Positions 4,975 through 30,186 of a stretch of 43,912 nt of DNA are shown piece after piece. Under the pieces are notes generated by a model that had not been told where the DNA came from, made no database searches, and saw nothing but the letters and a program-made list of their open reading frames with translations. Source of the stretch: an uncultured archaeon (lineage in GTDB: Archaea; Hadarchaeota; Hadarchaeia; Hadarchaeales; WYZ-LMO6); assembly GCA_938074535.1 (NCBI GenBank), contig CALJER010000026.1, forward strand, positions 1 to 43,912, written 5' to 3'. The first letter of the stretch is position 1; each line of letters starts with the position of its first letter. A program made the translations under genes and the position numbers.

Positions 4975-5128
4975 GCCGGGGTGCTGCTCAGGCAGCCCGA
5001 AAGCTCAGCAGGTAGAGCGCTCGGCTGTTAAACCCGGTGTGGATGAAGAGCGAGCCTCAAGAGGAAAGGACGACGCACCGGGTGCCGCGACCGAGCGGTC
5101 AGAGGTTCGAGTCCTCTCCCCGGCGCCA
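4975..5128 (+). tRNA. tRNA-Asn(GTT) with two introns: 4983-5001 (19 nt, position 8/9) and 5031-5089 (59 nt, position 37/38); CCA encoded
   Basis: Removing both introns gives a perfect cloverleaf GCCGGGG TA GCTC AGCAGGTA GAGC G CTCGG CT GTT AA CCGAG CGGTC AGAGG TTCGAGT CCTCT CCCCGGC G CCA; both introns have bulge-helix-bulge junctions. Confidence 0.92.
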
Positions 5129-17395: not shown

Positions 17396-17692
17396 TCAGC
17401 TCTTTCCGAGAACGATTTCTATGGTAGATACGTTGATTTTTTCGCCGCTTTCCGTCTGGAGTTCTTCCGTGCCGATGGTTATGTTTTTGGGGACCAGTCC
17501 CTGTATGAAGCGGTTCCTGAGGATTTCTGCCACGTCGACGGCCCTGCTTATGGCCTTTCCCCTGGCCTTCAGCACCACTTCGTTGCCCCCCTGGTTGAAC
17601 TGCGTGATGGCTGCCAGCACGTAGTTCATCACGGGCTTGGTCCCCACGAACACGGCATTGTCAGCGGCGCCTCTCTTTGGCTTTTCTGCCAT
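17396..17692 (-). CDS. albA: DNA/RNA-binding protein Alba
   Basis: [37 protein letters not shown]. Confidence 0.97.
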
Positions 17693-17731
17693 ATCATGCC
17701 TCCCGTTTTTTTAGATGGTCCTTCCCCCCCG

Positions 17732-18154
17732 TTAAATACTTTTCTCCCCCTCCCTCCTCAGGGCCAGGAGCATCCTCCTCTGCAGGTTCTCCTGCACCTC
17801 AAGCGGAGTTTTCCTTCCCTTCCGCATGTCGAGGTAATCCGCCAGATCCTCGAGCACCAGCTCCGCGATTTCCTCTTCCAGCAGCCCCAGGTAGAGGGCA
17901 AGCTCCAGCGTGTAGAAGGCCCGCATCAGCCTCTCCTTCCCCCTCTTCCACCTCTTCCAGGCCCCCGACCTCCCCATGTTCACTTTTCTGGCAATTTCCT
18001 CGAAGCTTCTGGCCCTTTCTGAGTAGTACAGAAGGAGAATTTGGAGGGTTTTTTCGTCCAGCAGGGATTTTTTGAGGAGTATTTTCGCTAAGGGGCTTTT
18101 TTTTACTTCCTTTATTCCGTAATCATTTTTTCTCTCCGCCGTTTTCTCCCTCAA
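17732..18154 (-). CDS. HTH-containing putative DNA-binding protein (start uncertain)
   Basis: SFEEIARKVNMGRSGAWKRWKRG helix-turn-helix pattern; upstream of alba on the same strand. Confidence 0.6.
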   Translation of the reverse strand: MREKTAERKNDYGIKEVKKSPLAKILLKKSLLDEKTLQILLLYYSERARSFEEIARKVNMGRSGAWKRWKRGKERLMRAFYTLELALYLGLLEEEIAELVLEDLADYLDMRKGRKTPLEVQENLQRRMLLALRREGEKSI

Positions 18155-18315
18155 AAAGATGTTCCTTTCTTTTTAATAGTGTTTCCATTATCAGGAAACA
18201 AGCGCACTAAGGAACAAAGAGCGCTGGTCTGGCGTGCGAACCTGGGGTTCCATGTTCTCTTTCTGGGTGCATGCCGGAAGCGGTGAGGGACAAAGCTTTT
18301 AATGCAGGCCGCAAG

Positions 18316-18414
18316 CCTACTTTTGTAGGAAAAAAGCCTACAAAAGTAGGATGCGGGCCTACAAAGGTGCAGGAAGAAATCCTGCACTTGTAGGCTTTTG
18401 TCCTACTGCGTAGG
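18316..18414. repeat. array of five phased palindromes CCT(A/G)C-N3-6-G(T/C)AGG
   Basis: Units at 18316-18329 CCTACTTTTGTAGG, 18337-18350 CCTACAAAAGTAGG, 18358-18373 CCTACAAAGGTGCAGG, 18381-18394 CCTGCACTTGTAGG and 18402-18414 CCTACTGCGTAGG; start spacing 21, 21, 23, 21 bp. Confidence 0.85.
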
Positions 18415-18428
18415 CTGGGGGCCGTCGG

Positions 18429-19004
18429 ATGAAGATAGCCGGGTTCTTCCCCTCGGAGATGCGGGTGGAGATGGTGCGGGAGATGGTGGAGAAGATGGGG
18501 ATCCGCCCGGTTTCCAATTCCATAGGGGTGAACTCCAAAACCGTCTACAAGTACAAGCTGGGGGAGGCGGTTCCTAGGGACGAGACCTTTATCCGGCTCC
18601 TTGAAGTTCTGAGGGAGAAGGACCCGAACACCTTCTGGGGGTATGTGGAGAAACTCCAAAGGGGGTTCGAGGAGGCCCTTTCCTCCTTGAAGAGCGGGGG
18701 GGAAAGGGGGTCCAAAGTTTCACGGGCAGGGGAGACCCAGTTCCCCCTCCAGGAGGCCGGGGAGGTGTCTAGGTTCGAGGTCTACGAAAGGCTGGGGATA
18801 GAGAACCCCTCCGAGCGGGTGAGGCTGGCAAGGGTTCTTTCCTTCCTAGCCACATGTACCGAATTCGGGGCGGAGGAGCTGGAGGAGAGGGTGATGCTTC
18901 CCAGGGATGAAGCGGAGGAGTACCTCAGGAGGCTGGTGCAGCATGGGCTCTTGGAGAGAACCAAGGAAGGGGTTTACAGGGTGAGAATCAGATGCAGGCT
19001 GTGA
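18429..19004 (+). CDS. two-domain DNA-binding protein (N-terminal Cro/Xre-like HTH, C-terminal winged helix)
   Basis: GIRPVSNSIGVNSKTVYKYKLGEAVP HTH pattern; C-terminal EELEERV.LPRDEAEEYLRRLVQHGLLERTKEGVYRV wHTH pattern. Confidence 0.65.
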   Translation: MKIAGFFPSEMRVEMVREMVEKMGIRPVSNSIGVNSKTVYKYKLGEAVPRDETFIRLLEVLREKDPNTFWGYVEKLQRGFEEALSSLKSGGERGSKVSRAGETQFPLQEAGEVSRFEVYERLGIENPSERVRLARVLSFLATCTEFGAEELEERVMLPRDEAEEYLRRLVQHGLLERTKEGVYRVRIRCRL

Positions 19005-19963
19005 AAGGAGAGCGGGCCGGGCTGGAAGGCTTCGGGATGGACTCCTTTGAGCGCAGAAAGGCCTCCTTCTTCAGGAGGTGGGGCTGGAAGTTCCTTCCCT
19101 TTGCTCAGACGGACCCTCTTCCCCACCCCAGGCTCATGGTGCCGCACCAGAAGGAGGAGGTGGTGAAGCTGGTGGACCTCATAAGGGAAGGAGATCTCGT
19201 GACTTTTGTGGTTTCAGAGCTGGGGATGGGAAAAACCACCCTCTGTAAATACCTGTCTGAGGTCCTTCCCCTTCAGGATCCGCAGCTCCTGACGGTTTTC
19301 GTTCCAGCCCAGTCCGTACAGAGCCCGGAGCAGATGTTGCGCATCCTCCTGAACAGGCTGGAGATAGAAGCAGGGGGAGACCTCACCGAGGAGTTCGAGA
19401 AGTTCTACCGCTGGCATCAGGCCTACCCGGCATCCAAATTGGTCGTTTTTGTGGACGAGTTCCCCGAGCTGGATGTGAGGGTGGCGGAGATGATACGGGC
19501 GCTGGCTGACCTCAGGAACATCACCTGGGTCCTGAACGGGAGAAAGGATCAGATCCTGGGCTACCTGCGGGAGCACGTGCCGTCCCTCCTCAGCAGAAAG
19601 AGGTACATGTTGGAGATGAGGCCCCTCTCCCTGGAGGAAGTGCGTGAATTGCTTCTCCTGCGCATGGCCTGGGCGAGAGGGGAAACCAGCCCGAGGGGGG
19701 ATTCCCTTCTCCCCTTCACCCCCTCCAGCCTCAGGAGAATCCACAGGCTTTCCGGTGGGGTCCCTCGCGAGGTTCTGAGGCTGGCAAGCGAAGCGGTTTA
19801 CTCCGCCATAGAGAAAAACGCCACCAAGATCGAGGCCTCCTTGGTGGGGGGGAGGAAGAGGAGGAGCTCGAGGAAAAAGGTGAAGCGCAGGCCTAGGCCC
19901 AGGCGGAGGCGCGTCGGGAAGAGGAGGAAGAAGGCCAGGAGGTTCGGCTTTTTCGGGAGGTAG
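18992..19963 (+). CDS. ExeA/GspA-like AAA+ ATPase with a very basic C-terminal tail
   Basis: N-terminal FF..WG....PF; Walker A-like SELGMGKTT; Walker B VVFVDE; FT...LRRIHRLSGGVPREV lid; Arg/Lys tail. Confidence 0.75.
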   Translation: MQAVKGERAGLEGFGMDSFERRKASFFRRWGWKFLPFAQTDPLPHPRLMVPHQKEEVVKLVDLIREGDLVTFVVSELGMGKTTLCKYLSEVLPLQDPQLLTVFVPAQSVQSPEQMLRILLNRLEIEAGGDLTEEFEKFYRWHQAYPASKLVVFVDEFPELDVRVAEMIRALADLRNITWVLNGRKDQILGYLREHVPSLLSRKRYMLEMRPLSLEEVRELLLLRMAWARGETSPRGDSLLPFTPSSLRRIHRLSGGVPREVLRLASEAVYSAIEKNATKIEASLVGGRKRRSSRKKVKRRPRPRRRRVGKRRKKARRFGFFGR

Positions 19964-21843: not shown

Positions 21844-23052
21844 GTGGAGCACTACGATGTGGTGGTGGTGGGGGCGGGCCCGGCAGGGTGCTCGGCGGCC
21901 AGGAAAGCGGCTGAGGAGGGGGGTAAGGTCCTCCTTTTGGAGCTTCAGCCACAGATAGGAGGACCCACGAAGTCGGCCGTCTGGGTGCCCGAGAACTTCC
22001 CGGGGCGCGAGTTCGCGCTGGCAGAGGTCTCGGAGGTGAGCTCCCTTCACCTTCACGCCGCGGGGGAAGAGCTTGCCTTCTCAGCCGGTGGGAGGATCCT
22101 CAACCGGCAGGTTCTGGAGAAGCTCCTGGCGGCGAGGGCGGCGGAGGCAGGGGCGGAGATATGGCTGGGGAGTCCCGTGAAGGAGTTCCTGATGGAAGAG
22201 GGAAGGGTGAGAGGGGTGGTGTTGGAGAGCGGCGATTGGAGGGAGAAGGTGGGGAGCGAGGTGGTCATAGATGCCAGCGGGAGCGGGTGGGAACTCTCCG
22301 GAATTTTCCGCCGCCGCTTCGGGGGATGGAAGAGGGAGGAAGTGATGTTCCTGAGCGAGTACACCATGGCCAACGCCCTTCCCAGGAAAGAGGTGGAGAT
22401 ATGGTTCAACTCCTACTTCGCACCCGGGGGAAAGATTTGGATTTATCCGCTGGGTGATGGGTTCGCCCAGTTCGGCATAAGCGGCCTGCGCCTTCATCCG
22501 GAGGCCGCGCTGGATGAGTTCCTGGGCGTGGAGAATCCCAGAAGACTGGGGCGTTCCGTGCCCGTGGCCTCTTCCAGGGGCCAGTTTCCCATAGAAGACC
22601 CCCTCCTCCCCTCTTGCGGGGATGGCGTGCTCTCGGTGGGTGCGGCTTCCTCCCAAACCAGGATTTTCTCCAGCGGGCTGCCCCTGGCCATGGAATGCGG
22701 GGAGATGGCGGGGGAGGCTGCGGTGAACGGTATAACGGAGGGAGACACCAGCAGGGAAGGGCTTTTGCCCTACGAGAGGAGGTGGAAGGCGAAGTTCCTG
22801 GGGGAGCTGAGGGCGGAGAGGCTGGTCCACCGGTCCCTCTCCGTGGCTTGGGACAGGAAGTTCAAGGAGCTGCTCACACTCGCCAGGGAGGACGCGGAGC
22901 TTCGGCGCTCCTTGCTCCGCCTGATGCAGGGAGAAGAAGTGGGGAGGGCCCTCATGATGATGGTGGAGAGGGAGGAAGTCCGGGAAATCCTTGGTGAGGA
23001 GAGGGCGGGGCGCGTGAAGGCCCTCCTGCGCGGCGAGGGGGTGGAGGAGTGA
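21844..23052 (+). CDS. geranylgeranyl reductase family FAD oxidoreductase
   Basis: YDVVVVGAGPAG, VIDASG, APGG..WIYP; divergent VG.A motif. Confidence 0.8.
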   Translation: MEHYDVVVVGAGPAGCSAARKAAEEGGKVLLLELQPQIGGPTKSAVWVPENFPGREFALAEVSEVSSLHLHAAGEELAFSAGGRILNRQVLEKLLAARAAEAGAEIWLGSPVKEFLMEEGRVRGVVLESGDWREKVGSEVVIDASGSGWELSGIFRRRFGGWKREEVMFLSEYTMANALPRKEVEIWFNSYFAPGGKIWIYPLGDGFAQFGISGLRLHPEAALDEFLGVENPRRLGRSVPVASSRGQFPIEDPLLPSCGDGVLSVGAASSQTRIFSSGLPLAMECGEMAGEAAVNGITEGDTSREGLLPYERRWKAKFLGELRAERLVHRSLSVAWDRKFKELLTLAREDAELRRSLLRLMQGEEVGRALMMMVEREEVREILGEERAGRVKALLRGEGVEE

Positions 23053-23918
23053 GGTGTCCCTCCTGTGGAAGCACCAGGGTGGTGGAGGATGCCAGCAGGG
23101 GGGAGAGGATCTGCACCTCCTGCGGTCTCGTGTTGATGGAGCATCTAGTTCATCAGAGCTTGCCCTACTCCGAGGGTGAGGAGCCCACAGGTTTCTCCGA
23201 GCTGGATGTAGCTCTGCACGATTTCGGTCTGGGCACCACCTTCAGGGTGGGAAGGGACCTTCCTCCGAGCGAGAGGGCTAAGCTGAGGAGGATGCGTTTT
23301 CTCCAAGAACGCTCCAGGGCCGTGAGGTGGCACGAGAGGAGCCTGAGGGAGGCCCTCATCCAGGTGGGAAGGCTGTGTGAGGCGCTCTCCCTTCCCGACG
23401 AAATCAGGAAGGAGATGAGTCAGCTCTACCGCAGGTGCAGAAAGGAGGGCCTCACGAGGGGGCAGAAGACGGGTCTTTTCGCGGCTTCCCTAGCTTTCGT
23501 GGTGTGCAGGCTCCGCGGTCTGCCCAGAACGGAGAGAGAGGTGGTGAGGGTCCTGAGGGAAAGGGAGGGAATGGAGGAGGGAGAAGCACTGAGGGGCCTG
23601 AGGAGGGTGACGAAGACGCTGATGCGCCGGCTGAACCTCAAGCTCCCGCCCTCTTCGCCCAGGCTCTACGTGGATAGGTTTGCTTCCCAGCTCCGCCTGC
23701 CCGCGGAGGTGGTGAGGAAGGCCCACGAGCTCTGTGCCGGGCTTGAGACGGGCGGGAAGCCGGCCAACCTGGTGGCCGCTGCCCTCCTCTACAACGCCGC
23801 CAGGGAGATGGGGGTAAAGCTCACCCTGAGGGAAGTGGCCAGGGAAGTGGGGGTGGGGGTTTCCAGTCTGTGTAGGGTTTCTCAACGAAGCAGAGAGGTT
23901 AAGAAGTTGCAGGAGTAA
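23049..23918 (+). CDS. tfb: transcription initiation factor IIB (TFB) paralog
   Basis: N-terminal Zn ribbon CPSC...GERICTSCGLV, LHDFGLGT, ERSL..AL, two cyclin repeats, terminal TLREVAREVGV HTH. Confidence 0.85.
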   Translation: MRCPSCGSTRVVEDASRGERICTSCGLVLMEHLVHQSLPYSEGEEPTGFSELDVALHDFGLGTTFRVGRDLPPSERAKLRRMRFLQERSRAVRWHERSLREALIQVGRLCEALSLPDEIRKEMSQLYRRCRKEGLTRGQKTGLFAASLAFVVCRLRGLPRTEREVVRVLREREGMEEGEALRGLRRVTKTLMRRLNLKLPPSSPRLYVDRFASQLRLPAEVVRKAHELCAGLETGGKPANLVAAALLYNAAREMGVKLTLREVAREVGVGVSSLCRVSQRSREVKKLQE

Positions 23919-24248: not shown

Positions 24249-24623
24249 ATGAAAATGTCGAATAAGAAAAAAATTTTATATATACAAACAAGTGGGGTTG
24301 ACAGTCCCGAACGTGCTTATGCACCGTTCATTTTGGCGGCTACAGCAGTTGCGATGGGCGCTGATGCAACCATATATTTTCTGATAAAGGGTGTTACGTT
24401 GGTCAAAAAAGGTGAGGCGGAGAAGATCAAAATCGGTAGTTTTCCATCCCTGAGGGAGGTCATGAATCAGGCGATTGGAGTGGGAGTGAAGCTCATGGTT
24501 TGTGAGCAAAGCTGCATGTTGCTCGGCATACCCAGAGGCGACTTTATACCGGAGGCAAAGATCGTAGGTGCTGCCACTCTCAACGATTTGGCTCTAAATG
24601 CGGATACAGTATTGTGTTTTTGA
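24249..24623 (+). CDS. DsrE/DsrF-like sulfur relay protein
   Basis: PER.YAPF..A..A.AMG, IYF...GV.LVKKG, VCEQS, IVGAAT. Confidence 0.85.
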   Translation: MKMSNKKKILYIQTSGVDSPERAYAPFILAATAVAMGADATIYFLIKGVTLVKKGEAEKIKIGSFPSLREVMNQAIGVGVKLMVCEQSCMLLGIPRGDFIPEAKIVGAATLNDLALNADTVLCF

Positions 24624-24631
24624 AGCGGAAG

Positions 24632-25816
24632 ATGTCAGTCCATTCCAGAATTTATATGGATTGTGTATCCGGAAAGCCTGTTGATCCTCGCGTTATAGAT
24701 GCCATGCTACCCTATATGAGAGAATTTTATGGTAATCCATCTTCGGTGCATTCTTTCAGCGGTGAGCCGAGGAGGGCCCTGGAAGAGGCTAGATCTGCAG
24801 TAGCCAGGCTTATCAGTGCTGAAAGGCCGGAGTCCATAATTTTCACTTCCGGGGCCACGGAAAGCAACAACATGGCTATCAAAGGGGTGGCCTTCAGGAA
24901 TGCGGATAGAGGGAAGCACGTGATAACTTCAAGCGTTGAGCACATGTCCGTAATGAATTCATGTAAATACCTCAAAACCAAGGGTTTTGATCTGACGTTT
25001 TTGCCCGTGGATAGATATGGCGTGGTCGACCTGGAGGCTCTGGAACGGGAATTGAGGGAAGACACGGTTCTCGTTTCTATTCAATATGCCAACAGTGAAA
25101 TAGGAACCATCCAGCCCATAAGGGAGGTGGCTCAAATAGTCCATAGAAAAAATGCATATCTTCACGTGGATGCTACAGCCGCTAACGGCAGGCTTCCCAT
25201 CGATGTCCAGAGAGAAGGCATAGATTTGCTTACTCTCTCATCCAACGACATATACGGGCCTAGGGGCGTGGGCGCCCTTTACATTCGTGAGGGGTTGCGC
25301 ATAGAACCCATAATCCACGGTGGAGGTCAGGAAAGAGGGTTGCGTTCTGGGACGGAAAATATCGCTGGCGTAGTTGGATTTGGGAAGGCAGCAGAAATAG
25401 CAATGAACGAAATGCAATCAGAGAGCGAAAAGCTGCGGAAACTGAGGGACAGGCTCATCCGAGGCCTGCTGGACGGTATCCCTTATGCTTTCTTGAACGG
25501 GCACCCGGTGCACCGTCTGCCTGACAACGCCGCGGTGAGATTTAGCTTTATAGAGGGTGAATCCATCCTTCTGAGTCTTGACATGATGGGCGTGGCAGCC
25601 TCTTCTGGTTCTGCTTGCACTGCGAAGACCCTGGAGCCCTCCCATGTGTTGATGGCCACGGGACTGAGGCATGAAGAAGCTCATGGTTCGGTGCTCTTCA
25701 CCCTCGGGAGACATAACACGGAGGAGGAGGTAGACTATGTAGTTCGGATAATGCCGGATATCGTGAAAAGGTTGAGAGCCATGTCTCCCCTAACACCCAA
25801 AGAGGTGCTGTGGTGA
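24632..25816 (+). CDS. iscS: IscS/NifS-family protein with Asp in place of the PLP lysine
   Basis: YGNPSS.H, FTSGATESNN, EH.SV, NSEIGTIQP, GGGQE.GLRSGTEN, SSGSAC; SSNDIYGPRG replaces the usual SxHKxxGPKG. Confidence 0.9.
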   Translation: MSVHSRIYMDCVSGKPVDPRVIDAMLPYMREFYGNPSSVHSFSGEPRRALEEARSAVARLISAERPESIIFTSGATESNNMAIKGVAFRNADRGKHVITSSVEHMSVMNSCKYLKTKGFDLTFLPVDRYGVVDLEALERELREDTVLVSIQYANSEIGTIQPIREVAQIVHRKNAYLHVDATAANGRLPIDVQREGIDLLTLSSNDIYGPRGVGALYIREGLRIEPIIHGGGQERGLRSGTENIAGVVGFGKAAEIAMNEMQSESEKLRKLRDRLIRGLLDGIPYAFLNGHPVHRLPDNAAVRFSFIEGESILLSLDMMGVAASSGSACTAKTLEPSHVLMATGLRHEEAHGSVLFTLGRHNTEEEVDYVVRIMPDIVKRLRAMSPLTPKEVLW

Positions 25817-26196
25817 TGTATAGTCAGAAAGTCCTAGAACATTTCAGAAATCCCAGAAACATGGGAGAAATCAAAGATGCGGACGGCATCGGGACTGTTG
25901 GAAACCCCGTGTGTGGAGACATGATGACTATCTACATAAAGGTGAAGGAGGGACGCATAGAAGACATAAAGTTCAAGACTTTCGGCTGTGGTGCTGCTGT
26001 GGCCACCAGTAGCATGATAACGGAGCTGGCGAAGGGGAAAACCCTTGAAGAGGCGATGAAAATAACGAGGAAAGATGTGGCCGAAGCTTTGGAAGGACTT
26101 CCGCCCGTGAAAATGCATTGCTCCAATCTTGCGGCTGATGCCCTCAAAGCCGCGATTGAGGACTATCGTAAAAAAAGCGGGGAGGTTAAGCTGTGA
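25816..26196 (+). CDS. iscU: Fe-S cluster scaffold IscU/NifU
   Basis: YSQKVLEHFRNPRN, GNPVCGD, FKTFGCG, LPPVKMHCS. Confidence 0.95.
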   Translation: MYSQKVLEHFRNPRNMGEIKDADGIGTVGNPVCGDMMTIYIKVKEGRIEDIKFKTFGCGAAVATSSMITELAKGKTLEEAMKITRKDVAEALEGLPPVKMHCSNLAADALKAAIEDYRKKSGEVKL

Positions 26197-26991: not shown

Positions 26992-28278
26992 TCAGTACTC
27001 CCTGTGGATTTCCCTGACCAGGGGTTTGGCCAGGTGCCTCCTGCAGCGCGGGGGTACCTCAAAGGATCCCCTCTCCACTTTCCTCTCTACCGGGATGAGT
27101 TTCGGTTTGGCGCTGGGAAAGTGCAGACCGCATTTTTTGCAGGAGTATCCCTTTGACCTCCCCTCGGACTTCAGGCTCTTTCCGCACCTGGGGCAGCTCG
27201 GGTTTTTCTTCCTGAAGAGGGGGACCAGCTCCAGGATGGAGAGCTTCTCCAGGTTGATGGTGCGCGGGATTCCCGGTTCTTCCCTCACCCCCCCGCAGAC
27301 CCTCACCCGGTCGCCCTCCCTCAGACCCCTCACCACTTCCCTGAACCGGCGCGTGGGCTCGTAGGCTGCGCAGTCCACGGTTCCGGTTCCGTCGTCCAGG
27401 GTGAAGATCACGTGTCCCCCAGGTATGGTCCTGGGGTTGCTCGCCACCTTTCCCTCCAGGATCACGGAGGTGCAGGGACGTATTTCCGAGATCGTGCTTT
27501 TCTTCAGGTGTTCGTCGGTTCCCTGGTTGGTTCTGTAAACCATGACCAGTTCCACCGGTTCCATCGCCTTTACGAGTTCGTGGGCCCTCAGCACGGCCTC
27601 GGGACTTTCTCCCCGGATGCCGTAGAGCACGGGGCAGGGAGTATGTGGGGTGATCCTTATCTCCCCCGTGCCGTGGTCCAGATTGTCGAAGGTCCGCGGA
27701 TAGGTCAGGCGGTCCATTAGGAGAACGGAGGAGGGGTCTATTCTCCTCGGTTTGCCCCAGTACTCACGGCTGCGGTAGGCGATGAGCTCGTAGGTCCAGT
27801 CCTTTTCCAGGGGATGTCCGACGGCGGCCAGGGCCCCTATGAGCCCCCTGCCCATCTTGAACTTGTGCACCTCTGCCCCCACCTCCCTGGCCAGGGCCTC
27901 CGCCTCCTCCAGCTCCACCACCTCCTGCACCGTCTTCTTGGCGTAGGATTTCAGCTCCTCCGGGATTTTTTCGGAGGCGTAGAAGACCACCCCGGGATTG
28001 GTGGTTTCCACTTCCATTTCCGCCAGCGAGCGCACGGTTTCAAGCACCCTCTCTTTCACGAGGGGCACCTGAGAGGGTGAGACCTCCACGGTGAAGGAAA
28101 TGGCGCAGTTGCCCCTGGTCTTGTGCGGCCACATGGGGTTCAGCCTTATGAGCTTGGGGTAGCCCTTCACCTCCACCCCCTCCTCCTGCAGGGAGCGGAT
28201 GGCCACGGCTCCCACGTAGGTGGTGCACATGCCGCGCTTGGAATCCGTGTCGTCCACTCCTACGTGGAGCTCCATCAT
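26992..28278 (-). CDS. tiaS: tRNA(Ile2) agmatinylcytidine synthase
   Basis: GVDDTDS..GMCTTY, LIRLNP..P.KTRGN, PHTPCPVLYGIRG, TNQGTDEH, OB fold (AAYEPT), C-terminal Zn ribbon and RRHLAKP. Confidence 0.94.
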   Translation of the reverse strand: MMELHVGVDDTDSKRGMCTTYVGAVAIRSLQEEGVEVKGYPKLIRLNPMWPHKTRGNCAISFTVEVSPSQVPLVKERVLETVRSLAEMEVETTNPGVVFYASEKIPEELKSYAKKTVQEVVELEEAEALAREVGAEVHKFKMGRGLIGALAAVGHPLEKDWTYELIAYRSREYWGKPRRIDPSSVLLMDRLTYPRTFDNLDHGTGEIRITPHTPCPVLYGIRGESPEAVLRAHELVKAMEPVELVMVYRTNQGTDEHLKKSTISEIRPCTSVILEGKVASNPRTIPGGHVIFTLDDGTGTVDCAAYEPTRRFREVVRGLREGDRVRVCGGVREEPGIPRTINLEKLSILELVPLFRKKNPSCPRCGKSLKSEGRSKGYSCKKCGLHFPSAKPKLIPVERKVERGSFEVPPRCRRHLAKPLVREIHREY

Positions 28279-28350
28279 CCTTCTAGGGAGCTTGAAATAC
28301 TTTGGGATTACGAGGGGCCAATCCTTAATGGGAGGGGAGGGTCTAGAGGG

Positions 28351-30186
28351 ATGAGGGCTATGGAACCTTGGGGTAGGCTCAAGGAGGAGGTGGTGAGGAC
28401 CATAGAGGCAGCGCTCCGCTCGGCGGGCTGGGAGCCTCCCCGCAGGGTGGAGGAGACCCTCTCCCAGCCCCCGGATCCCGAGCTGGGGGATTTGAGCTCC
28501 ACTCTCTGTCTGGAGCTTTCCAAAAAGCTGGGGAAGCCCCCGCAGGAAGTGGCCCGGGAGATGGTGGGGAGGATGGAGTGCAGAGGGCTGCTGGAGAGGG
28601 TGGAGGAAGTGAGAGGATATCTGAACTTCTTCATCAACCTGCCTTCCTTTGCCAGCCTCACCCTGAAAGAGATAGAGGCGAAGGGCAGGGATTATGGGAA
28701 GGGGAGTGAAGGAAAGGGAAAGAAGGTGGTGATAGAGCACACGAGCGTGAATCCCACCAAGCCCCTCCACATCGGACACGGCAGGAACGCGGTTCTGGGG
28801 GACACCATGGCCAGGGTGCTCAGGGAGAGGGGGTACGAGGTGGAGGTGCACAACTACATCGACGACCTGGGGAGGCAGATGGCGGAAACCCTAGTTTCCC
28901 TGTCGGAGATAAAGGAGAGACCTAAGGGCAAGTTCGATCATGTTTTGGGCAGGCTCTACGCGGAGTTCCACCAACTGCTGGAGAGCCGCCCGGAGCTGGA
29001 GGAAAAAGTGGGAGAGGTGCTGCGGGAGCTGGAGAGGGGAGGGAAGATCTCGAAGAGGGCCAGGGAGATAGCGGAGAAGTGTGTGAAGGCCAACCTCCTC
29101 TCCACCGACAGGCTTGGAATAGGGTACGACCTGCTGGTCTGGGAAAGTGATCTGGTCAGGTCGAGCATCCTGCATGAAACGCTCGAGCGGCTGAAGAAAA
29201 CTCCCTACCTCGTGCAGGGCGAGGGGGAGAAAGCCGGCACCTGGATTCTGCGCCTCCCCGGGGAGGAAGAGAAAGTCCTGATCAGGTCGGATGGGACGGC
29301 GGTCTACACGGCTAGGGACATCTCTTACCAGCTGTGGAAGTTCGGGTGTACCGAGCGGACTTTGAAATTCAGGTTCCACTCCAGGAGGAGCGACGGGACC
29401 AGGACCTACACCACCTCTGGGAAAGGAAGGGTGGTGAGGCGTTTTGGGCATGCTGACGTGGTTATCAACGTGATCGGGGCGGAGCAGAAGTTTCCCCAGA
29501 AGGTGGTCTCCTCCGCCCTGAAAGCCCTGGGCCTTCAGAAGCAGTCAGAAAACTCCCATCATCTCTCCTACGAGCACGTGCGCCTCCCCCAGGAGAGGTT
29601 CTCGGGGAGGAAAGGCACCTGGATAGGGTTCACCGTCGATGAGGTGGTGGAGGAGGCCGTCTCCAGGGCCAGAGGACTGATGAAGGACCGCTCGATCAGG
29701 GGGAGTCTGCGGAAGGAGATCCCCGAGGGGGTGGGGGTGGGAGCCGTGAGGTTCTCACTCCTCGCCACCTCCCCGGATAAGGAGATAGTTTTCAAGTGGG
29801 AGGAGGCTCTCAACTTCGAAAGGAACAGCGGTCCCGCTGTTCAGTACTCCTACGCCAGAGCCTGCAGCATCCTTCGAAAGGCCAGGGGGCGCAGGATCAG
29901 GCCGGTCTCCTTCTTCGAGCTGAAGGAGGAAAAAGAACTCCTGAAACTCCTGGCTCAGTACCCCGAAGTGGTGCGCCTCGTGTGCGAAAGGAGGCAGCCC
30001 AGCCTCCTCGCCAGGTACGCGGCGGACCTCTCCATGAGCTTCAACAAGTTCTATGAGGTGGCCCCCGTCCTAGAGGCTGGAACGGAGGAGCTCAGGAGTT
30101 CACGCTTGAGGTTGGTGAGGGGTACCACGGTAGTCCTGGAGAACGCCATGCGTTTGCTCGGAATCCCCATCCTCCGGAGAATGTAG
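28351..30186 (+). CDS. argS: arginine-tRNA ligase
   Basis: EHTSVNPTKPLHIGHGRN (HIGH), RSDGTAVY, FSGRKG, QYSYARACSIL, C-terminal RM. Confidence 0.96.
   Translation: MRAMEPWGRLKEEVVRTIEAALRSAGWEPPRRVEETLSQPPDPELGDLSSTLCLELSKKLGKPPQEVAREMVGRMECRGLLERVEEVRGYLNFFINLPSFASLTLKEIEAKGRDYGKGSEGKGKKVVIEHTSVNPTKPLHIGHGRNAVLGDTMARVLRERGYEVEVHNYIDDLGRQMAETLVSLSEIKERPKGKFDHVLGRLYAEFHQLLESRPELEEKVGEVLRELERGGKISKRAREIAEKCVKANLLSTDRLGIGYDLLVWESDLVRSSILHETLERLKKTPYLVQGEGEKAGTWILRLPGEEEKVLIRSDGTAVYTARDISYQLWKFGCTERTLKFRFHSRRSDGTRTYTTSGKGRVVRRFGHADVVINVIGAEQKFPQKVVSSALKALGLQKQSENSHHLSYEHVRLPQERFSGRKGTWIGFTVDEVVEEAVSRARGLMKDRSIRGSLRKEIPEGVGVGAVRFSLLATSPDKEIVFKWEEALNFERNSGPAVQYSYARACSILRKARGRRIRPVSFFELKEEKELLKLLAQYPEVVRLVCERRQPSLLARYAADLSMSFNKFYEVAPVLEAGTEELRSSRLRLVRGTTVVLENAMRLLGIPILRRM

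Follow-up and report, generated by a model that had tools for sequence, protein, structure and literature searches.

Plasmid and chromosome partition modules with a centromere inside a promoter, such as ParMRC (with parC), type Ib, TubZRC, SegAB and AspA-ParB-ParA, combine phased repeats on both sides of their promoter, a small site-specific DNA-binding protein and a nucleoside triphosphatase (NTPase) in a single autoregulated operon. Archaeal Orc1/Cdc6 initiators pair an AAA+ core and lid with repeated DNA elements, the origin recognition boxes (ORBs), directly beside their gene, and TnsC and MuB polymerise on DNA, where they are positioned by an adaptor. SegB is described as binding a centromeric sequence adjoining segAB (PMC12139799), and the SegAB abstracts call archaeal chromosome segregation 'obscure' and 'enigmatic'. 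Here we analyse a locus within a 43,912-nucleotide stretch of DNA from an uncultured archaeon of the Hadarchaeota (GenBank assembly GCA_938074535.1, contig CALJER010000026.1), referred to as the window. The host assembly is a metagenome-assembled genome (MAG) of 53 contigs and 1,206,154 bp with 63% GC. At the centre of the locus is a DNA module of two genes, confined to Hadarchaeota and present in almost all of them, in which a gene for a helix-turn-helix (HTH) protein, the adaptor HTH191, is preceded by a phased palindrome array (array B) and directly followed by a gene for an ExeA-family AAA+ ATPase. A second HTH gene, HTH140, and its own palindrome, palA, form a separable second unit.

The locus resembles a 'cis site + binder + NTPase' module of the partition or initiator type, and fails membership of each known family. 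As in the partition modules, promoter-embedded repeats, a small predicted binder and an NTPase lie together in one operon. Unlike in those modules, the NTPase is an AAA+ protein (AAA_22, no CbiA or ParA match) rather than a ParA, actin-like or tubulin-like protein, the binder gene comes first, and the host also has ParA/MinD-type genes.

Organization of the locus

The preliminary description of this DNA had placed two divergent HTH genes around a 274-bp spacer, with alba beyond one of them and an overlapping ATPase gene beyond the other, and all of these were found where it had put them. The features of the locus are as follows, with coordinates counted from the first nucleotide of the window.

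17396..17692, minus strand: alba, 98 residues; Pfam Alba 1.6e-22; an adjacent gene that does not regularly belong to the module
17732..18154, minus strand: HTH140, 140 residues, all-helical; N-terminal sigma-70 region-4/YlxM-like HTH followed by three long helices
18155..18428: intergenic spacer, 274 bp, between the divergent HTH140 and HTH191 genes
18170..18179, minus strand: predicted TATA-like box CTATTAAAAA of HTH140, about 22-25 nucleotides upstream of its TTG start
18180..18200, no strand assigned: palA, perfect palindrome TGTTTCC-ATTATCA-GGAAACA; putative HTH140 operator
18296..18303, plus strand: predicted TATA-like box CTTTTAAT of the HTH191-ATPase operon, immediately ahead of the first unit of array B
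18304..18426, no strand assigned: array B, six 17-bp palindromic units, stopping 2 nucleotides short of the ATG of HTH191; proposed target of the N-terminal HTH of the adaptor
18429..19004, plus strand: HTH191 ('UP' adaptor), 191 residues; N-terminal HTH, short linker and C-terminal winged helix
18992..19963, plus strand: ExeA-family AAA+ ATPase, 323 residues; AAA_22, with an Orc1/Cdc6-, TnsC- and MuB-like fold
19859..19960, plus strand: disordered C-terminal tail of the ATPase; poly-basic linker, then aromatic patch RRFGFFGR

The ATPase gene starts inside the HTH191 gene, with an overlap of 13 nucleotides. The phased palindrome array that had been reported for the spacer was recovered as six units with a period of 20-23 bp, beyond chance in comparison with shuffled sequence. 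Each unit follows the form GTAGG-N7-CCTAC (5+7+5), with some half-sites degenerate, and the units start at 18304, 18325, 18346, 18369, 18390 and 18410, which gives spacings of 21, 21, 23, 21 and 20 bp; an independent repeat search of the window returned the same array period (21, 21, 23). The pattern CCTAC-N3-4-GTAGG occurs three times in the window against 0.03 expected, a count reached in 0 of 100 shuffles. The AT-rich tract that had been noted beside the array (approximately 18155-18210) is likewise present, although a second element within it, palA, had not been separated from it. The family assignments to Alba and to the ExeA-like AAA+ proteins were upheld.

The array is unique in the genome. 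Exact copies of GTAGG-N7-CCTAC number three in the whole genome, every one of them in array B, compared to 0-2 in five shuffled genomes. When up to one mismatch was allowed, the genome contained 43 matches (four in array B) against 36-49 in shuffled genomes, so that there is no excess of dispersed units, and dispersed copies of the array unit were rejected as a genome-wide feature. The same pattern held in relatives: all four matches to the unit pattern on a 440-kb contig of one relative lay within its own array, and on a 1.03-Mb contig of family f2, clusters of TGTTAR (at least five in 120 nucleotides) occurred at the adaptor-ATPase locus only.

The adaptor-ATPase pair is conserved across the Hadarchaeota

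We compared 41 loci, namely the window and 40 other genomes, and surveyed 66 Hadarchaeota genomes, 26 of them high-quality, for the ATPase across the phylum. All compared genomes are MAGs, and their start codons, TATA boxes and transcription start sites are predicted positions. The ATPase was present in 38 of 41 relatives and, phylum-wide, in 58 of 66 genomes (24 of the 26 high-quality ones), mostly as a single copy. At 40 of 41 loci the gene immediately preceding that of the ATPase on the same strand encodes an adaptor, family f6 being the exception, and the two genes overlap or are separated by a gap of at most 4 nucleotides at 17 of the 18 loci with exact open reading frames (ORFs) called; at the eighteenth (L026) the annotated ATPase start probably lies upstream of the true one. 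The idea that a repeated cis site, an HTH protein and an NTPase make up a conserved unit thus passed the synteny check, and the array is conserved in the sense that repeats lie upstream of the pair across lineages, with a motif specific to each lineage. Named homologues of HTH191 were all called Hadarchaeales or Hadesarchaea (14 of 14), the public names of close homologues assign the host genome to Hadarchaeales/Hadarchaeota, and the only relatives of the ATPase found outside Hadarchaeota were weak, generic AAA_22 matches.

HTH140 is adjacent to the pair at 37 of 41 loci, the remaining four being a truncated contig, f5 (where HTH140 lies 5 kb away), f6 and L042. The arrangement is divergent in f1, f4 and genus g18, and co-linear, in the order adaptor, ATPase, palA, HTH140, in f2 and at two f4 loci outside genus g5 (L044, L045). 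Two further members of the unit proposed in the preliminary description did not withstand this comparison. We rejected alba, to which one of its two arms leads, as a component of the system, given that it was seen within the fetched stretch at 20 of 41 loci and at none of the seven g5 loci, and the left HTH gene, HTH140, proved to be separate, with a proposed operator of its own. In family f5 (L168, L032; G009:C16, ~15.8-23.2 kb) the genes run in the order HTH140, topoisomerase VI A, topoisomerase VI B, DNA ligase, adaptor, ATPase and adenylate kinase, a DNA-metabolism neighbourhood that was not seen in other families.

The repeat motif follows the DNA-binding domain of the adaptor

An alignment of the adaptors (A2) showed that the C-terminal winged helix is common to all families and the N-terminal HTH is family-specific. 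The N-terminus carries an Xre-like HTH in f1, f4 and g18, with the motif GIRP..VN.K.VYKYK in HTH191, and a MerR/HTH_17 domain (E ~1e-11) in f2 and f5. For HTH191 itself, Pfam returned TrmB (2e-5), HTH_IclR (2.6e-5) and HTH_3 (0.057); the matches of the C-terminal winged HTH are weak. The Pfam scan also gave weak matches to AbiEi_4 (0.0013). Many MerR-type adaptors of f2 (for example L025, L026 and L030) carry an HNH-like zinc-finger insert between the HTH and the winged helix, which in L030 matches Pfam HNH at 4.2e-5.

We assessed the arrays by counting motif classes; a statistic of exact 6-mer repeats is too crude for the degenerate f4 arrays. Across 37 loci the class of the repeat motif tracks the HTH subtype of the adaptor:

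Xre-like adaptor, 13 loci: 17-bp palindromes with GTAG/CTAC-type half-sites, spacing ~21 bp, mean 7.0 half-sites
MerR adaptor with HNH, 13 loci: GTTAR direct repeats, spacing ~10-11 bp, mean 5.3
MerR adaptor without HNH, 10 loci: DGACA, spacing ~10 bp, mean 4.2
f5 adaptor, 1 locus: GATAAA, spacing 9 bp, 5 copies

Mean counts of a motif in the other classes were all below 1, and the contrast between classes is clear even though the classes were derived from the same loci in which they were counted, which makes this evidence descriptive. Genus g7 reproduces the association internally, one genome combining a non-HNH adaptor with GGACA repeats and the others an HNH adaptor with GTTAR repeats. The direct repeats of f2 and f5, spaced at 9-11 bp, occupy the same place as the palindromes.

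The loci of f2, f4 and f5 that we read carry 4-10 short repeats on both sides of a TATA-like box, reaching the start codon. All six units of array B in the window lie downstream of the TATA-like box CTTTTAAT, and in f4 and genus g2 some units lie upstream of the corresponding box too. A T-rich box directly ahead of a GTAG unit was present in 11 of the 11 related f1/f4 spacers inspected. A scan for sigma-70-type promoters gave 0 sites, with a model that is not relevant to archaea. At L030 (G013:C1, ~833.7-835.0 kb) the TGTTAR array and its TATA-like box are duplicated about 1.1 kb upstream, and the two arrays flank an ORF-poor segment of about 950 bp in which no Rfam match was found; this segment might represent an insertion, or else a non-coding transcript driven by the array.

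Charge separates the two domains of the adaptor. The mean net charge is +4 for the basic N domain and -1.2 for the C domain; the C-terminal winged helix is neutral to acidic (-7 to -14 in g5), and its 'recognition' helix has a mean net charge of -0.8. This composition suits protein contact better than DNA binding, and the retention of the winged helix through swaps of the DNA-binding domain points to a retained protein contact. Co-folding of the ATPase (A1) with HTH191 (A2) scored 0.26 and 0.16 against a mark of 0.32, which gives no answer and was used neither for nor against binding.

The ATPase resembles DNA-loading AAA+ proteins in fold and ExeA in sequence

Over residues 66-184 the ATPase belongs to Pfam AAA_22 (PF13401), with 41.0 bits (cut-off 27; E 2.8e-10), and its orthologues in f5 and f6 reach 55 and 60 bits with this model; its match to TIGR03015 is far below that model's cut-off (35.1 bits against 324.5, E 9.4e-9, residues 64-283). 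Its closest sequence family is that of ExeA/GspA and the PEP-CTERM ATPase TIGR03015, and it has a conserved N-terminal W/G..DPF segment. In our sequences this segment takes the form G-W..(D)P-F..P....P.Q, with P36, F37, P44, P51 and Q53 invariant in 29 sequences, and an F-G-L..P-F type motif ahead of Walker A is what we take to be the hallmark of ExeA/GspA. In contrast to ExeA/GspA, the window ATPase is without the peptidoglycan-binding domain PF01471, which was found only in the distant matches P0059, P0061 and P0062 (550-561 residues), the transmembrane (TM) helix is represented only by a TM-like stretch in one homologue, and its gene is accompanied by a repeat array and by the gene of a DNA-binding adaptor. 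Relatives of the ATPase carry the public names 'general secretion pathway protein A' or 'ExeA', as assigned by JGI; the UniRef name of one homologue, P0034 from a single-cell genome of candidate division MSBL1, starts with 'ORC1', and public annotation of the family is inconsistent.

A search by sequence found no close solved structure for the ATPase. With its AlphaFold model (predicted local distance difference test, pLDDT, 83), Foldseek ranked archaeal Orc1/Cdc6 structures first, led by 1w5t (E 6.9e-11, TMq 0.57) and followed by 2qby, 1w5s and 1fnn, with Orc1/Cdc6 matches spanning E 7e-11 to 1e-8 and TMq 0.56-0.58; eukaryotic ORC/Cdc6, TnsC and MuB came next, and RuvB ranked lower. The model thus has the AAA+ core and lid fold of the initiator type. 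In addition, helices 112-122 and 131-144 stand between strands 99-105 and 149-155 and may represent an initiator-specific insertion. The conserved residues comprise Walker A, the Walker B aspartate, a sensor-like N182 and several arginines, and those invariant across the 29 sequences include G78, G80, K81, T82, D155, N182, R202 and R259.

The likeness to Orc1/Cdc6 extends to the pairing of the ATPase with a winged helix. The deep-branching f6 genome lacks a separate adaptor; its ATPase bears a fused C-terminal winged helix (HTH_24, 6.1e-5), in the Orc1/Cdc6 order of AAA+, lid and winged helix, and we read this fusion as a merger of adaptor and ATPase functions. However, the window ATPase matches neither TIGR02928 (E up to 0.1) nor Cdc6_C (PF09079), the winged helix fused in f6 is a generic HTH_24 rather than Cdc6_C, most lineages carry the winged helix on a separate protein that bears a swappable HTH, and canonical Orc1/Cdc6 copies are encoded elsewhere in the genome, with the skew minimum not at the locus. 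The fold is also similar to that of TnsC/TniB and MuB (7ufi, 7plh, 7m99, 8xvb), from which the system differs in that no transposase lies nearby and the ATPase gene is single-copy, vertically conserved and set in a fixed gene context. Only the f6 protein matched the TniB Pfam family, and did so below threshold (17 bits; cut-off 22.4).

Beyond the lid, the ATPase ends in a tail (residues 290-323) that is disordered in the model, with pLDDT <50 over 290-318. The net charge after the lid is +23 in the window and +13 to +25 in f1, compared to -1 to -54 in g5, and simple electrostatic binding of the tail to the membrane is disfavoured because the g5 linkers are acidic. In f1, f2 and g5 the tail finishes in an aromatic patch resembling F-x-x-F-[LF] (RRFGFFGR, SFWSFLPF, FFKRIFSFL), and in f5 it is basic and without the patch. 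The C-terminal patch might be a MinD-like membrane-targeting element or a PCNA-interacting peptide (PIP) box; it did not fit a strict PIP pattern. One homologue, L031 (G034), has a TM-like stretch (mean Kyte-Doolittle 3.12 over 17 residues) before its aromatic end motif.

HTH140 and palA form a separable unit

HTH140 shares its HTH fold with YlxM/UPF0122, sigma-70 region 4, LuxR and Tfx proteins, but falls below every Pfam and NCBIfam cut-off. It scores 18.4 bits against UPF0122 (PF04297; cut-off 22.7) and 16.4 against NCBIfam YlxM (cut-off 80), and its sigma70_r4 Pfam matches are sub-threshold as well. In its structural model (pLDDT 84), residues 19-85 align with sigma region-4 and LuxR HTH domains at Z 7-8 (VIA-align), its profile (A3) matches YlxM 1s7o with E 0.0047, and the ESM Atlas leads were LuxR and Tfx clusters (0.82-0.85). 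No specific match was found for the three long C-terminal helices, and the family has only 9 representatives in 1.84 billion proteins.

The palindrome palA occurs once in the whole genome. Upstream of HTH140 the strict palA pattern is present at 34 of 37 loci, the remaining three carrying a one-mismatch form; f5 HTH140 has palA too, and in families other than that of the window the TATA-like box lies on the far side of palA. The allele TGTTTCC accompanies HTH140 proteins in which the residue immediately ahead of the [SP]GAW helix is R or K (28 loci), and the allele TACTTCC accompanies those with Q at this position (6 loci). Positions 2-3 of the palA half-site thus covary with the recognition-helix residue in 34 of 34 rows with zero exceptions, a clean signal that nevertheless reflects few evolutionary events, since it needs just two changes on the gene tree and a single change is possible. 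We regard HTH140 as a probable autoregulator acting at palA.

HTH140 occurs without a detectable ATPase in two f5 genomes, and the ATPase occurs without HTH140 in one f6 genome. Because each is found alone, we rejected HTH140 as an obligatory third component. At L167:4330-5480 (G015), where no ExeA-family ATPase was found, HTH140 overlaps a downstream gene of the MinD/ParA superfamily (CbiA 6.4e-15, AAA_31 1.1e-10) by 4 nucleotides; this pairing may be coincidental or may reflect a partner swap.

Position of the locus relative to the predicted replication origin

The host genome encodes two canonical Orc1/Cdc6 proteins (TIGR02928, PF09079) on contigs C43 and C23, neither of which is the contig of the locus, and the ATPase was accordingly rejected as a missing initiator. 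Where the ATPase and orc1-1 share a contig (three genomes), they are separated by 51 kb (G002), 28 kb (G013) and 38 kb (G014), the last of these being biased by the 59-kb length of its contig. Cumulative GC skew was followed in two of these relatives:

G013:C1: skew minimum ~790 kb, orc1-1 at 803 kb, locus at 832 kb; observed range reached in 15 of 1000 block shuffles
G002:C2: skew minimum ~365 kb, orc1-1 at 318 kb, locus at 267 kb; observed range reached in 1 of 1000 block shuffles

As to the position relative to the GC-skew origin, which the preliminary description had proposed to check, the locus lies 28-51 kb from orc1-1, and the skew minimum is some 40 kb and 100 kb away in the two relatives, skew being a weak guide in archaea. 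We place the locus moderately near the predicted origin, at a distance of about 3-8% of the genome, and off the skew minimum. No GC-skew switch was found within the window, 18.3 kb included; local skew there follows gene orientation. No clear ORB-like array was found upstream of orc1-1 in the host genome, a region that is coding.

Other genes and features of the window

The neighbours identified by Pfam in the window are AspRS, Alba, PHP and AMMECR1, and no transposase or integrase was found by Pfam among the window neighbours scanned. A TFIIB/TFB gene (23049-23918, plus strand) and a gene for TiaS, the tRNA-Ile2 agmatidine synthetase (26992-28851, minus strand), lie a few kb downstream of the locus. 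Positions 24249-26196 (plus strand) form an island of low GC (0.48-0.53 compared to 0.63 for the genome) that encodes a DsrE-like protein, a class-V aminotransferase (IscS/NifS-like) and a NifU/IscU-like protein, and may have been acquired horizontally. At 5002-5117 (plus strand) Rfam matches a tRNA of 116 nucleotides (31.5 bits against a gathering threshold of 29) for which ARAGORN makes no call; it may be an intron-containing archaeal tRNA.

Proposed function and alternative explanations

From the computed uniqueness of the site, its conservation, the covariation and the fold, we infer a sequence of binding steps, the loading of the ATPase and a biological output. Judging by the sequences, HTH191 very probably regulates its own operon by binding array B with its N-terminal HTH, and the same may be said of HTH140 at palA. 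The N-terminal HTH of HTH191 would recognise the phased repeats around its own TATA-like box up to the start codon, and cooperative binding there would repress the HTH191-ATPase operon. With the C-terminal winged helix serving as a protein-contact domain, the adaptor would recruit the translationally coupled ATPase to this single chromosomal site, the ATPase would assemble on the DNA there, and its flexible tail with the aromatic patch might link the complex to the membrane or to a partner protein. HTH140 would bind palA and regulate itself as a conserved neighbour. Candidate outputs are tethering, segregation, local organisation and replication control. The nucleation step is proposed because of the fold, the translational coupling, the retained non-basic winged helix, the fusion in f6 and repeats whose number and phasing go beyond the needs of repression. 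Taken as a whole, the statement that the adaptor controls its own operon and also nucleates the ATPase at a single site moderately near the origin stands, in our estimate, evenly balanced between right and wrong. A bolder form, a phylum-specific chromosome machine in which an ORC-fold ExeA-family ATPase takes the place of ParA/SegA, is loaded by the adaptor at a centromere-like array and is coupled through its tail to the membrane, division or replication apparatus, we consider unlikely.

Several observations weigh against ATPase nucleation at the array. The position of the array around its own promoter, and its uniqueness, are explained by autoregulation alone, and the nearness to the origin is modest and comes from 2-3 genomes. 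The sole characterised member of the sequence family of the ATPase, ExeA/GspA, reportedly acts in secretin assembly and not on DNA, and the f2 ATPases have DD rather than DE at Walker B. No ATPase was found, even by profile search, in two f5 genomes that are 92% complete, so the module is apparently losable. The host genome contains 15 ParA/MinD-superfamily matches and FtsZ; there is consequently no obvious gap for a new segregation ATPase and no forced replacement of ParA. The descriptive standing of the motif classes, and the small number of changes behind the HTH140-palA covariation, count on the same side.

The preliminary description had named an autoregulated divergent promoter as the simpler alternative. 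Because the array surrounds its own TATA-like box, autoregulation is almost certainly also true and could be the whole story. As the whole story, it would make HTH191 its own repressor, give the ATPase an unrelated job such as ExeA-like membrane assembly or chaperoning, and leave HTH140 as an unrelated transcription factor. Repeats running over a TATA-like box to the start codon occupy the classic place of an archaeal repressor, no regulon is needed because the site is unique, and the ExeA/AAA_22 sequence family, the separability of HTH140 and ATPase, and a membrane link suggested by the hydrophobic C-terminal patch and the TM-like stretch of one homologue are all in keeping with it. However, 4-10 helically phased repeats exceed what simple repression needs, the model of the ATPase is nearest to DNA-loading AAA+ proteins and in f6 is fused to a winged helix, and the non-basic second winged helix has been kept in every adaptor family despite the swap of the DNA-binding domain; we regard a plain autoregulated operon as a strong rival, possible but somewhat doubtful. 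If the array were instead a replication element, comparable to iterons or ORBs beside an AT-rich stretch, the adaptor and ATPase would be a split non-canonical initiator or an origin regulator. The top fold matches to Orc1/Cdc6, the domain order in f6, 17-bp units two helical turns apart beside initiator-like genes, the distance to orc1-1 and the DNA ligase and topoisomerase VI neighbours in f5 would all fit. This is nonetheless improbable in view of the two canonical Orc1/Cdc6 genes elsewhere, the missing TIGR02928 and Cdc6_C matches, a skew minimum away from the locus in two genomes with no switch at 18.3 kb, and an AT-rich stretch of just ~50 bp that is taken up by a predicted promoter and a putative operator.

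The gene order and overlap also recall type II/IV toxin-antitoxin (TA) operons, with an HTH antitoxin overlapping an NTPase and promoter repeats serving autoregulation, and the weak AbiEi_4 matches, the TnsC/MuB-like fold, and the exchange of adaptor HTHs between lineages, some with an HNH insert, could suggest a defence or mobile module or a domesticated target selector of the TnsC/TniB type. In contrast to such modules, which are patchy, multi-copy and mobile, the pair is present in 58 of 66 genomes, mostly as one copy in a fixed context with stable housekeeping neighbours, and the scanned neighbours include no transposase or integrase, which makes an origin of this kind highly improbable. 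Finally, the palindromes might fold into RNA hairpins within an extended 5' leader, as an attenuator or riboregulator, given that all units in the window lie downstream of the TATA-like box, where a leader of ~105 nucleotides would hold five or six hairpins, and that a terminator-like scan flags several of the array B palindromes. This explanation is scarcely credible: the direct repeats of f2 and f5 cannot form RNA hairpins, so the array acts at the DNA level, units in f4 and g2 also lie upstream of the box, and no Rfam family reached threshold in the spacer (best 24 bits against 90).

Taken together, these results present the adaptor-ATPase module as a concrete candidate, found over nearly the whole phylum, in a field in which chromosome organisation, anchoring and segregation are largely unknown for most archaea. 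A keyword-level literature search on ExeA, AAA_22, COG3267 and Hadarchaeota Cdc6 topics found no published account of it. The locus offers a defined cis site, a predicted binder with natural motif swaps and an ATPase of the DNA-loader type. Even the modest reading gives two testable predicted protein-operator pairs, HTH191 with its array and HTH140 with palA, the latter with a natural specificity switch between R/K with G-T and Q with A-C. Should assembly of the ATPase at the array be borne out, it would represent a fourth NTPase class for the combination of cis site, binder and NTPase, or a non-initiator function of an ORC-related protein.

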